Position numbers and translations under genes: made by a program
Notes under the pieces: model-generated
What the model was told of the DNA's origin: nothing
What the model saw: the letters and a program-made list of their open reading frames with translations, nothing else
Database searches by the model: none
In this document: piece by piece, positions 431 through 59,499 of the stretch
How the letters are laid out: every line of letters begins with the position of its first letter
Position numbering within the stretch: position 1 is the stretch's first letter
Assembly (NCBI GenBank): GCA_964016885.1
Contig: CAXHJY010000610.1
Span: forward strand, 6,790-70,789
Source of the DNA: Eledone cirrhosa
Taxonomy: Eukaryota
Reading direction: 5' to 3'
DNA length: 64,000 nucleotides

Positions 431-888
431 ATTGATAATGGTGGTGTAACCCTGTCATATATATCACATACGTCCATTTCCTTGTCTTTAGTTTACATTG
501 CATTGGCAACATTATTACATAAGATGCTGTCTGATGATGTCGCGTCACAGGTTACGTGATCGAAGCAGCACGTAACCATGAACACCATTACATCTACATC
601 GGATCTCCGCAACTATCCTTATTGTATATATATATATATATATTTATATATATGTATATATATGTATATATATTCATAACAATATCGGTTTCAACACACG
701 TTTTCAGATAAAGAATCTTGCTAAACAAATTCAGAAACGAAATATATATATATATATATATGTAGGAGGTGAGTTTTATTGTAGTACAATTAAGCAATGC
801 AGATATCGGATAAGAAGCACTCTACAGTTTGTAGGACTGGAGTATACATAATATATAAGAACAAAAGATGGTTAAAAGAGTTCCATGT

Positions 889-957
889 ATTTCATTATGC
901 GCATTTCAAAAACAAATATCATCATGCAATAATATTTGTGTTTTCATCAGATAAAAC
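889..957 (-). ncRNA. Type I hammerhead ribozyme (HH1)
   Basis: gttttat-CTGATGA-stem II-GAAA-TGCGCA-TA-atgaaat. Stem I pairs and stem III is palindromic. Confidence 0.85.
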
Positions 958-1011
958 AGGAAGACATGATATGAAGGTTAAAAAACACTTGTGGATAGTT
1001 CAGTTTTATCA

Positions 1012-1080
1012 GTTTTATCTGATGAAAACACAAATATTATTGCATGATGATATTTGTTTTTGAAATGCGCATAATGAAAT
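1012..1080 (+). ncRNA. Type I hammerhead ribozyme (HH1)
   Basis: CTGATGA 1019-1025, GAAA 1062-1065, TGCGCA, predicted AUA cleavage after 1073. Confidence 0.85.
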
Positions 1081-2074
1081 ACATGGAACTCTTTTAACCA
1101 TCTTTTGTTCTTATATATATATATATATATATGTATATATATATGTATATATATATATATATATATATATATATATATGTATATATATATATATGTATAT
1201 ATATATGTATATATATATATATATGTATATATATATATACATATATATATATATATATATATATATATATATATATATATATATATATATATATATATAT
1301 ATATATATACATCGTATTTGTAGTACATTTAAAAAAGAACTGCAAGTTCCATAGATATTCTTGCTAAGGGGAGGTATTCTTCATCGCCACCATTCGTAGT
1401 GGGTCCTGCCACGTCTAATCATTAGTTTTGTATCTACACACTTATATACATGAATATACATATAAACAAATATATATCATATATATGTATATATACATTA
1501 TATGTATGACAATAAATATGAAATTTTTAAACACACCGTTTATCTTAACTGATTAGTTAATTAATGCTGTTGCTGCTGCTGCTGCTGCTGCTGCTGAGAA
1601 TGTTGTTGTTGTTAATGATGATAAATATAACTGTTGATTTCATTGGAATATTACTTCCTTCTCTCTAAATATCCTACTGCTGTTTGTATAACCATCCTGC
1701 CTCCAACTGATGTCTCGTCACCAGTTCTACATCCCACCCCATCCCCAATCTACCCTTTCTATCCCCTCCCTCTCTCTCTCTCTCTCTCTCTCTCTCTCTC
1801 TCTCTCTCATCCAGCAACTTAGTGACTCAATTTTGTCGCATCACTCTCTGATACTTAGCCTCGTTATCTACCTCTCTATTTCAACAATTTTAGATTGTCG
1901 TAGGTTCTAAGACTGTCTCTCACCCTTTCACTCTATCTGTCTATCTATCTATCTATCTATCCATTTAGAGATAGATAGACATATCTATTAAACTGATCAC
2001 TTGTTCAATACAGCTATTTAGCTCATCTGTCACTGTTCAACTCTCAGCTCATCTCATTAACTTTCCACCCGTCC

Positions 2075-55303: not shown

Positions 55304-55442
55304 GTATATATATATATATATATATATATATACATACATATATATATATACATACATATATATATATATATATATATATATATATATACATACATATATA
55401 TATATATATATATATATATATATACATACATATATATATATA

Positions 55443-56021
55443 TGGTGGCTGCCAACTCGTTTTCGAGTACGGCCACTACTTTATATCCATGTAGGAGAAC
55501 TCCTACCGATGCGCTGAACGAGTGTGACTTTTTAGTCCAGCCAGCAACTTGAAAACTCTGGTACAAACACTACACTTGTGACAATTACTGACACATAGTG
55601 CTGGGACCATGGTACCATGTGACGACAAGTGCAGAGAGATCTCCAGATATAAAGCAATGCCTGTGCCGTGAAGCTTTTATAGTGAGCAAAGGCACTGCAC
55701 AAAGCCAGTCCCACTCTCTTAACCAAGATGATATTTACCAAAAAGAATAACAAGTCAACATCATTGGATACCATCAGGGTTGCAGGTGTTATATCAGAGT
55801 TTTCCTTCTCCTAGAATTCTGCCTTGACAAAGGCTAAGGGGTCATCTCTCCCGGTGATTTTGGATGGCCATTGACTCTTAAGAGCTCCTTTGCCCTTTGA
55901 CAGGTTTTGTTTTTAGTCCTGCAGGATGTCCAAAGTCACCCTCCTCACCAAGAAACCTTGGTGGGGTTGCCAGTTTAGTCGCCAACGACCCGACCATGAG
56001 ACAGGTTGTACTGGGATACAT
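55443..56021 (-). mobile_element. Non-autonomous RTE-like element, copy 9 (near longest form)
   Basis: Reverse complement of about 14214-14792. Confidence 0.75.
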
Positions 56022-58160
56022 ATATATATATATATATATATATAAATACATATATATATATATATATATATATATATATACATACATATATATATATATA
56101 TATATATATATACATACATATATATATATATATATATATATATACATACATATATATATATATATATTATATACATACATGTATATATATATATATATAT
56201 ATATATACATATATATACATACATATATATATATACATATATATATATATACATATATATACATACATATATATATATACATATATATACATACATATAT
56301 ATATATATATATATATATATATATACATATATATACATACATATATATATATATATATATATATATACATACATATATATATATATATATATATATATAT
56401 ATATATATATACATACATATATATATATATATATATACATACATATATATATATATATATATATATATATACATACATATATATATATATATATATATAC
56501 ATACATATATATATATATATATATATATACATACATATATATATATATATATACATACATATATATATATATATATATATACATACATATATATATATAC
56601 ATACATATACATACATATATATATATATACATACATACATATATATACATACATACATACATACATATATATATATACATACATACATATATATATATAC
56701 ATACATACATATATATACATACATACATACATATATATATATACATACATATATATACATACATACATACATATATATATATACATACATATATATATAT
56801 ACATACATACATATATATATATACATACATATATATATATACATACATACATATATATATATACATACATACATATATATACATACATACATATATATAT
56901 ATATACATACATATATATATATACATACATACATATATATACATACATATATATACATACATACATACATACATATATATATATACATACATACATACAT
57001 ATATATATATACATACATACATACATATATATATACATACATACATACATATATATATATACATACATACATATATATACATACATACATACATATATAT
57101 ACATACATACATACATATATATACATACATACATACATATATATACATACATACATATATATATATACATACATACATATATATATATATATATACATAC
57201 ATTCATATATATATATATACATACATACATATATATATATATACATACATACATTCATATATATATATATACATACATACATTCATATATATATATATAC
57301 ATACATACATACATATATATATATATATATACATACATACATATATATATATATATATACATACATACATACATATATATATATATACATACATACATAT
57401 ATATACATACATACATACATATATATACATACATACATACATATATATACATACATACATACATATATATACATACATACATATATATATATACATACAT
57501 ACATATATATATATATATATACATACATTCATATATATATATACATACATTCATATATATATATATACATACATACATACATATATATATACATACATAC
57601 ATTCATATATATATATATACATACATACATTCATATATATATATATACATACATACATTCATATATATATATATACATACATACATTCATATATATATAT
57701 ATACATACATACATATATATATATATACATACATACATATATATATATATACATACATACATATATATATATATACATACATACATATATATATACATAC
57801 ATACATATATATATACATACATATATATATATATACATACATACATATATATATATACATACATATATATATATATACATACATACATATATATATATAT
57901 ACATACATACATATATATATATATATACATACATATATATATATACATACATACATATATATATATACATACATACATACATATATATATATACATATAT
58001 ATATATATATATATATATATATGTATATATATATATATATATATGTATATATATATATGTATATATATATATGTATATATATATATGTATATATATATAT
58101 GTATATATATATATGTATATATATATATATATATATATATATATATATATATATATATAT
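56022..58160. repeat. (TA)n/TACA tract
   Basis: Direct reading. Confidence 0.95.
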
Positions 58161-59213
58161 GTCTGTGTGTGTATGGCGACTATGTTTATATAAATATTTA
58201 TATAATATAAATAAATGCAAGCTTTCTTTGTGCATATGTTCTTGTGCTTATATACCTGGTTATGTATATGTATGTATGTATATTTATATGTCTGTGTTGT
58301 GTAGGTATATAGTCATGTGTAATCATACAAAAGTCAAACAAATATGAAACGCATATATATATATATATATATATATATATATATATATATATATATATAT
58401 AATATTACATTATATTATATGTACACATATACACATGTGTCAGGGAATAATTTGGCAGAAAGCCGTCGCCATAGTTGATGGAATTCATTGCGACAACCTT
58501 CTGGTATTTGTTTATCTTGGCCGCTTGCGATGATAGACAAAACGAGTCTACTTCCTGCGGATTTTAGCCTTGGAACATTGGGACATTTATCTAAGTACTA
58601 ACATTTGAACATGCTCGTAATGTCTGTATAATCTTGACAAATTTAAACATCTGCATATATATATATAGCGGTAGAACATTGTGAGTTTATATCCGTAGTA
58701 GTGAAGCATTCAGTCCATGGGACGAGTTCGCAAAAAGTTAGTTCCACAACAGTTAATAAACCAAATACGAGGACACGTGTTTCACCTTCACTTCGAGTTG
58801 AAGATCAGTAAGGTGGAATAGTGCCCCAAAACTGGGAGAAATGAGGCAAAATGAGGAAATTTTACATGATGAAAGTTATGCCCATTTTCACAAGAGAAGA
58901 CTTCTCCCCGTCGGTCGAGGAGAGTTGACAGGCCTGTTTTTTTGTTTTTTTTTGTTTTTTTTTTACATTCATATGAATTATTGATTTATTGATATTTTAT
59001 CTGAGTGACCCGAATCTTCCTGGTCGTTATTTTTCGGCCGCATGGGTGATTTTAGGCATAATCTTTGTGTGTTGGTATTTTAACGATAGTTATAGCTCTG
59101 ATTTATCTGAATTATTGAGCCCTCTGCCACTCATGTCGGATTTGTTTATCGTAAACTCGTGAGCTGATTTTCCGATACTCGATTATTCTACTATATATAT
59201 ATATATATATATA

Positions 59214-59499
59214 GTGACTAAACATAAGTCAATTGCATGAATTCATAATCCTTTATTTACTGCTATATATATTTCGATGATAGCCATTGAATGGCTATGA
59301 CCTCATCAGGCAGTTAGTCAGTTCTTAGATATGCCAGTTCTGTGTTTATGGTGTTGATGGTATCAGAGCCTTGGGACATATATATGGGATAACAAGTTAT
59401 CGTTTTAGGTAATCCAGTTAGAGGTTGTGAGTACTCTGTACTATGGATAGTTTTAACGTTCGGCGTTGTTTGACTCAACAAGAGGTTTCCTTTGTTACC
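59214..59499 (-). mobile_element. About 285-bp hammerhead-bearing element between two short (TA)n runs (family HH5)
   Basis: (TA)n at 59192-59213 and 59500-59515 with an internal hammerhead. Confidence 0.7.
59259..59314 (-). ncRNA. Type I hammerhead ribozyme (HH5)
   Basis: actgc-CTGATGA-ggtcATAGCCATtcaATGGCTATcatc-GAAA-TATATA-TA-gcagt. Confidence 0.85.

Follow-up and report, generated by a model that had tools for sequence, protein, structure and literature searches.

Hammerhead ribozyme motifs in an Eledone cirrhosa contig as probable 3' pseudo-LTR pieces of seven Penelope-like element families

A stretch of 64,000 nt from Eledone cirrhosa (assembly GCA_964016885.1, contig CAXHJY010000610.1, positions 6,790 to 70,789 of the forward strand; termed here the window), which has a G+C content of 27.9% and abundant (TA)n tracts, carries eleven intact hammerhead ribozyme motifs. 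Each motif is very probably the hammerhead within the 3' pseudo-long terminal repeat (pseudo-LTR or pLTR) of one of seven protein-coding families of Penelope-like elements (PLEs), and the short pieces that bear the motifs are likely truncated or inverted by-products of insertion. By sequence the motifs fall into families A (cores at 950, 1019 and 35667, and a damaged copy at 21258), B (28779, 29015 and 29236), C (43534, and a damaged copy at 43561), D (59309), E (22387), F (55140) and G (11655); six of these (A-F) are of Hydra type and one (G) is of putative Neptune type. The features are listed below, with the core and H17 positions given by a strict descriptor and with identities to copies at other genomic loci (L numbers) that are linked to an open reading frame (ORF); such identities range from 83 to 99%.

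763..1008, minus strand: family A Hydra-type pLTR with long tail, inverted arm (core 950, H17 896; 96.3% to ORF-linked L053)
1011..1111, plus strand: stump of a family A pLTR that has the short tail and terminates in (TA)n (core 1019, H17 1073)
11612..11845, plus strand: family G pLTR at the 3' end of a putative Neptune-type element (core 11655, H17 11683; 95.7% to L240)
21199..21326, minus strand: family A solo pLTR with damaged hammerhead (GAAA short of one A)
22050..27578, minus strand: family E Hydra-clade element, 5'-truncated and frameshifted, with a 3' region of ~4 kb that includes a microsatellite tract
22243..22397, minus strand: family E hammerhead in the 3' pLTR (core 22387, H17 22253; domain II of 116 nt)
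26011..27450, minus strand: family E C-terminal half of the reverse transcriptase (RT), CxCX5C linker and GIY-YIG-type endonuclease (P0001)
28590..28936, minus strand: family B Hydra-type pLTR with long tail (core 28779, H17 28730)
28967..29117, plus strand: family B pLTR, inverted partner of the preceding one (core 29015, H17 29064)
29137..29338, minus strand: family B pLTR stump (core 29236, H17 29187; 97.6% to L239), its hammerhead preceded by an inverted tail piece (~29245-29338)
35597..35762, plus strand: solo pLTR of family A whose start coincides with the recurrent -71 boundary (core 35667, H17 35721)
43441..43550, minus strand: family C Hydra-type pLTR stump (core 43534, H17 43490; 96.6% to L279)
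43550..43646, plus strand: family C inverted arm with damaged hammerhead (GAAA changed to GACA; domain II short)
54995..55160, minus strand: family F Hydra-type pLTR (core 55140, H17 55034; domain II of 88 nt; 99.4% to L244)
55158..55304, plus strand: family F long tail, inverted
59214..59381, minus strand: solo pLTR of family D, Hydra type, ~168 bp long and fixed at both ends (core 59309, H17 59264; 98.3% to ORF-linked L307)
525..580, plus strand: possible decayed hammerhead 5' half from an eighth family (GAAA-palindrome lacking; matched weakly by L326 alone, E 3.5e-4)

The descriptor required a stem I of at least 4 bp, CTGANGA, a domain II, GAAA, a palindromic stem III and a non-G base at H17; because the palindrome is required, the scan yields no estimate of how frequent a non-palindromic stem III is. 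It returned exactly the eleven motifs claimed in a preliminary description of this DNA (an earlier scan with a short limit on domain II, which found only 3, is superseded), and the four cut sites predicted there (1073, 29064, 35721 and 22253/22252) coincide with H17 positions of the descriptor. Among 300 dinucleotide shuffles of the window (100 each within 200-nt blocks, within 1000-nt blocks and over the whole window) the full motif occurred on average 0, 0 and 0.01 times, respectively, with a maximum of 1 in the last set, so that the count is not matched by shuffled AT-rich sequence; the bare CTGANGA core, found 22 times as against a mean of 14.7 and a maximum of 28 in local 200-nt shuffles, is unremarkable alone.

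The motifs have the CUGANGA and GAAA cores, the UH site and the order of stems I-III that characterize the minimal type I hammerhead. A hairpin is the predicted fold of domain II in every family; it is weak in C and long in E and F, where domain II reaches 116 and 88 nt, respectively. Duplexes of the stem III palindromes have predicted energies of -3.2 to -10.5 kcal/mol; in the minimum free energy fold, stem I is improperly formed in four of the seven window motifs tested. Position N7 is T, A or G in the eleven intact motifs, with C solely in the damaged copy at 43561, and so does not take all four bases in the way first described. No hammerhead appears among the best 150 of 622 matches in an Rfam scan of the window, those 150 being microRNA models below gathering scores. 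As far as the sequence goes, the eleven are real ribozyme motifs of ordinary origin.

Their grouping differs somewhat from the earlier one. At least six unrelated contexts had been recognized; there are in fact seven families, two of which (B and C, ~80% alike) are related. The damaged copies reported at 21198 (family A) and 43553 (family C) are genuine, but that at 525 keeps only a 5' half; the unit placed at 851-1118 reaches leftward to ~763. Nor do monomers of 165-310 bp describe the set: motif 22243 lies at the end of an element 5.5 kb long, and inverted composites make up several of the units.

The protein-coding parents were found by searching the genome with each family and then walking upstream from copies with common flanks, up to 40 candidates being scored in each DNA search. 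Every family, in other genomic copies, continues upstream into its own RT/GIY-YIG ORF, which ends ~0.35-3.7 kb away. Family A reaches a Hydra-type endonuclease ORF ~0.85-1 kb upstream at L051, L052, L053 and L055, and family B an endonuclease ORF ~1.4-1.6 kb upstream at L235, L236, L237 and L239, though not at L238; at L239 the pLTR tail leads to the ORF start. Family F forms tandem units ~3.6 kb apart with a 773-residue ORF, one of which is L244, and in family G a GIY-YIG ORF (PF01541, E 1.8e-6) with a Neptune-type linker ends ~0.37 kb upstream of the hammerhead (388 nt upstream at L240). The 3' region of the family D parent was traced via L096 and L119: all 30 loci found with this region continue into D, 14 of the 30 have a same-strand endonuclease match upstream, and the longer stretches also contain RT, in broken frames. 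For family C, an endonuclease lies 1.1 kb upstream at L279, whose intervening DNA is shared by L296 and L297, while L298 has an inverted attached ORF that is 90% like that of L279. In E, F and B the pLTR tails are followed directly by the next ORF, and a pLTR also precedes the ORF in tandem copies of E (L056-L059), F (L243, L244) and B (L063/L239), and once in D (L309). (The segment 59386-59499, considered as an upstream extension of D, was rejected: it is a separate (TA)n element, and of the 30 loci that it retrieved just 1 contained D.)

In a uniform recount, the end of an endonuclease lay on the same strand at the distance typical of the family in 8 of 38 testable copies of A (5 loci), 6 of 28 of B, 1 of 30 of C, 9 of 52 of D, 2 of 7 of E, 3 of 16 of F and 7 of 41 of G; these fractions are not genome frequencies, the loci being short and most long ones having been chosen on purpose. 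The ORF-linked loci L316, L335 and L363 come from an evenly spaced sample of the genome rather than from a targeted fetch. Among the seven, family C has the thinnest support for the ORF link. Thus in all seven families the hammerhead piece occupies the place of a PLE pLTR, downstream of the RT/GIY-YIG ORF of the same element, and the 5' truncation, inverted 5' copies and optional tail of such pLTRs are likewise seen. What the preliminary description had named as an outcome fatal to its own proposal, namely that the families are plain solo pLTR fragments, is what these ORF-linked parents point to; its view that minimal type I hammerheads with a palindromic stem III were placed in (TA)n by a Penelope-like RT/GIY-YIG protein is upheld.

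The assignment of A-F to the Hydra clade and of G to the Neptune type is made by motifs and similarity. RWK-like and DKT motifs of the Hydra clade read RWR/DKT in E, RWK/DKT in F and RWR/DKT in B; the CxCX5C linker, and CxxC and CxH around a conserved E and N, without CCHH, were read in translations of A, B, D, E and F; family C is assigned by tblastn similarity. Insertion into (TA)n, another trait of the clade, is visible in the flanks of copies. Family G has a CxxxxCxxC linker and a PF01541 GIY-YIG domain with further Cys/His residues, Neptune and Nematis being alike by linker.

Family E bears most directly on the earlier proposal that 26011-27577 is a helper shared by all the hammerhead units. 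Window positions 22043-27578 align end to end with full-length head-to-tail units of ~6.65 kb (95.1% over 5668 columns, L057), and 22050-22460 is identical at 28 other genomic places among 40 scored; hence motif 22243 is the element's own 3' pLTR. The window copy begins near residue 294 of 814 and has a frameshift near 27440, and thus cannot itself supply RT. In its frame at 26011-27450 are the CxCX5C linker and the CxxC/CxH motifs by which PMC8557442 defines the Hydra clade; Pfam gave no match for this frame, or for any of four Hydra-type proteins in all, and a homologue search returned 296 relatives at E<=1e-20 without yielding a family label. All 89 scored genomic matches to the frame are 98-100% identical, and 20 of these copies contain the full 830-residue frame, which also holds RWR and DKT. 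Family E is young, with many intact frames.

Two further observations concern this element. The microsatellite-like tract at 23020-24770 belongs to it and moves with it, so that family E spreads simple repeats; and at 25668-26064, directly 3' of the ORF, there are three degenerate direct repeats of ~130 bp with hammerhead-like CAGATGAG...GAAA traces, which are possibly decayed ribozyme copies.

How close copies are arranged was examined across 282 motif copies from the window and the loci (duplicates being removed imperfectly). There are 34 same-family pairs within 700 bp, and of these 33 are head-to-head, one is tail-to-tail and none is head-to-tail, so that the tandem arrangement of retrozymes is absent from this set. 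The cleavage site is not where copies end: their ends lie upstream of the core by some tens of bases, and past the cut by tens to ~200 bases. Their 3' ends cluster at two points in six of the seven families (relative to the core, +107/~+210 in A, +206/+343 in E and +151/~+285 in F), and 5' ends of short copies recur at -72 in D, ~-70 to -74 in A, -86 to -92 in B, -76 in C and -42 to -48 in G. TCA is present at or close to these recurrent 5' ends, which in A, C and D also coincide with TA microhomology. Both are common upstream; TCA occurs 3-12 times per 300 nt there, so its coincidence with the ends lends little weight to the idea of a transcription initiator. The ends may mark either a transcription start within the pLTR or a truncation hot spot at microhomology, since both fit.

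Short and long copies were compared in D (28/27), A (21/12) and G (31/7), samples that are small and biased. No fixed difference separates them: between-group distances are intermediate to within-group distances, and none of 27 columns tested distinguishes short from long copies after correction.

The continuity of the pieces with ORFs, their (TA)n flanks, their inversions and their two tail ends are observed; cited work suggests for them a scheme of target-primed reverse transcription. A tandem copy would be transcribed from its own pLTR, and the element's own endonuclease would nick a (TA)n tract. Reverse transcription would then begin internally on the RNA, at either of two 'tail' sites that lie ~100-340 nt beyond the ribozyme core on its downstream side, and would copy through the uncut hammerhead, mostly stopping or folding back within tens to hundreds of bases and so leaving solo pLTRs and head-to-head inversions. 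Cleavage by the hammerheads is predicted to require dimers paired through the stem III palindrome, and would probably serve the processing of long tandem transcripts.

The genome at large was sampled by 60 evenly spaced 10-kb stretches (600 kb), a small sample that gives a wide density estimate. It contains 30 motifs (~50 per Mb), compared with 0-1 in ten shuffles, which extrapolates to ~150,000 motifs genome-wide with a Poisson range of 101,000-214,000 that clustering would widen. Domain II is at least 45 nt long in 11 of the 30, and Hydra-type coding sequence occupies 23,873 of the 600,000 bases (~4%). At least eight more hammerhead families, with other palindromes and a domain II of 14-97 nt, are seen in this sample (L313-L372).

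Other explanations must be weighed against these findings. That the motifs are chance matches in AT-rich, microsatellite-rich DNA agrees with the bare core count, which lies inside the local shuffle range, but is exceedingly improbable given eleven full motifs as against 0-1 in 300 shuffles, 30 as against 0-1 in the sample, and the fixed place of the motif in the pLTR of seven families. The preliminary description took the pieces for non-autonomous retrozyme families parasitising one helper; in its fuller form, the idea is that they are non-LTR retrozymes that self-cleave from tandem repeats and circularise as RNAs of 165-310 nt to be copied by a shared Penelope helper. Unit size and type I topology fit, and retrozymes are described as derived from pLTRs and as including many monomers (bioRxiv 10.64898/2026.07.22.740005). 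According to the same source, however, two consecutive units define an active retrozyme, whereas the 34 pairs include no head-to-tail one; a short unit with a single hammerhead would release no circle, copies end away from the cleavage site, and every family has an ORF-bearing parent of its own and so is no non-autonomous lineage. For these seven families this explanation is largely refuted, and its probability is very low.

The other explanation holds that some solo pLTRs, above all those of D, are secondary masters, which would keep the pLTR promoter, yield RNAs of ~170 nt or more and be re-inserted in trans by a Hydra RT/endonuclease, in the manner of a short interspersed nuclear element (SINE). 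Several observations favor this and weigh against regarding all short pieces as mere by-products: the 5' and 3' ends of D are fixed, 26 of 29 non-long copies starting exactly at -72, as do all three D copies found without a D query; the D ORFs fetched are broken or partial; and short D copies are less divergent (2.0% versus 3.1% for long ones, a figure biased low because likeness to the query governed which short copies were chosen). The by-product reading also has against it a lean in two of the 27 columns (p 0.005 in A and p 0.015 in G, before correction), and rare tandem arrays could have escaped searches in which no more than 40 candidates were scored. The promoter of PLEs and their start sites lie within the pLTR (PMC6765202), and PMC3846280 indicates that pLTRs suffice for mobilisation in trans. 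On the other side, short and long D copies carry the same variants at the same frequency (column -41: 18 C/9 T versus 18 C/10 T), the upstream D parent DNA is itself abundant (1629 first-look candidates versus 2391), and families with ORF-linked parents also have recurrent ends. Contigs of four sequencing runs compared with D contain no end-to-start joint, which is uninformative either way. Secondary masters of this kind are unlikely. Marginally less so is a related possibility: that the fixed-length solo pLTRs are complete copies from start site to tail, reverse transcribed from the tail in the 5' leader up to the cap, with the TCA-like site ~70-90 nt upstream of the core (A-D) as promoter start, and that D may be multiplying in trans after decay of its parent. 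Of the two readings of the 5' ends, only transcription start opens a route to self-propagating solo units, which the comparison of short with long copies did not support; a solo unit would then keep promoter, ribozyme and RT start site, which is why D may continue to multiply. If true, this would represent a SINE-like stage between Penelope pLTR and retrozyme, in a genome of some 100,000-200,000 hammerheads, and if solo units replicate on their own they would show how retrozymes originate from pLTRs. Most likely, then, elements of a known kind gave rise to the short pieces as fragmentary or inverted by-products, and no new parasitic RNA system is involved.

The window contains other repeats. 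A non-coding (TA)n-flanked element of ~600 bp occurs at 14183-14790, 6986-7449, 14850-15265 and 17480-18600, with further copies at 21420-21830, 34314-34643, 54733-54982 and 55400-56016; it has a fixed 3' end in 30 of 38 matches, a common 5' end and partial tandems, lacks both a strict hammerhead core and an ORF, and is present in 8 of the 60 sampled stretches. It is a better candidate than the hammerhead pieces for a true non-autonomous (TA)n-targeting family. The segment adjoining D at 59386-59499 (L205-L234) belongs to an abundant (TA)n-inserted family with inversions and a fixed end (2406 first-look candidates), near which some loci have Hydra-type ORF matches. Within the D pLTR, opposite the hammerhead strand, 13 bases at 59358-59370 (plus strand) resemble an initiator-tRNA primer-binding site of plant LTR elements, probably by chance. 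A long open frame before a (TA)n tract at 37650-39160 probably represents part of a non-LTR reverse transcriptase; a common SINE-like repeat has copies at 246-429, 30907-31089 and 63900-64000, and a 32-bp minisatellite of 69 copies lies at 2083-4290. Within 11850-18838 there is a near-identical duplication of 3.3 kb (11953-15541 versus 15265-18838, 97.6%), which may be real or an artefact of assembly.

Among the closest known systems is the Hydra clade of Craig et al. 2021 (PMC8557442), the only relevant source listed by a literature search on octopus hammerhead ribozymes; its Hydra families, including Hydra-1_Obim of an octopus, nearly all lie in (TA)n and have hammerheads, and truncation, inverted 5' copies and tails are described. 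The likeness extends to the GIY-YIG-type C-terminal endonuclease, the RWK-like/DKT, CxCX5C and CxxC/CxH motifs, (TA)n insertion, a 3' type I hammerhead, partial tandems and inverted 5' copies. The families described there are generally shorter than 3 kb, whereas units here are ~3.6 kb (F) and 6.65 kb (E); the Hydra hammerheads of its File S2 span 80-100 nt with flanks and mostly have a loop III of 1-3 nt, unlike those here, which have an even palindrome as stem III and a domain II that by itself reaches 88-116 nt; compared by eye, the listed Hydra-1_oBim hammerhead matches no family of the seven; and long tails extend ~90-140 nt past the short end in five families rather than 30-40. Family G resembles Neptune-clade PLEs in its CxxxxCxxC linker before a Pfam GIY-YIG domain with Cys/His residues and in its hammerhead ~0.37 kb past the ORF, a placement by motifs, the Nematis linker being similar.

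The PLE hammerheads of Cervera and de la Pena (PMC4209133), whose cleavage as dimers is described as weak, are mostly single motifs from truncated PLEs, with pairs on opposite strands separated by 100-700 bp; they share with those here this arrangement, a palindromic helix III, a larger helix II and many families per genome. A density of ~50 motifs per Mb would give far more motifs than the 2,000-9,000 per genome quoted there, with descriptors that differ. Animal non-LTR retrozymes, tandem and pLTR-derived (bioRxiv 10.64898/2026.07.22.740005; PMC7229834), have similarly short AT-rich units and type I hammerheads related to pLTRs, but are head-to-tail repeats that yield circles, whereas the units here occur singly or in inversion and run on into coding parents. 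The Poseidon element PAc (Frangieh et al. 2024, PMC11167929), with two internal RT starts and an uncleaved RNA template, is comparable in that here too there are two alternative 3' ends downstream of the hammerhead and copies that span the uncut ribozyme; PAc, however, starts reverse transcription within the ORF and without target homology, whereas tail ends here precede the ORF where seen (E, F and B), often at short TA-like tracts (by eye). Solo pLTRs, palindromic junctions and mobilisation in trans are described by Arkhipova et al. (PMC3846280), and an octopus repeat annotation (PMC13282606) lists 30 recently active Penelope families, their clades and ribozymes not being named in its excerpt. 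The seven families are thus members of known PLE clades with the hammerheads expected of them, an annotation-level result. The Hydra clade is known from about two dozen families, and the value of those here is as a resource: abundant Hydra coding sequence, a young family (E) and hammerheads that vary in domain II and palindrome make both the role of PLE hammerheads and the preferred ends of solo pLTRs easy to test.

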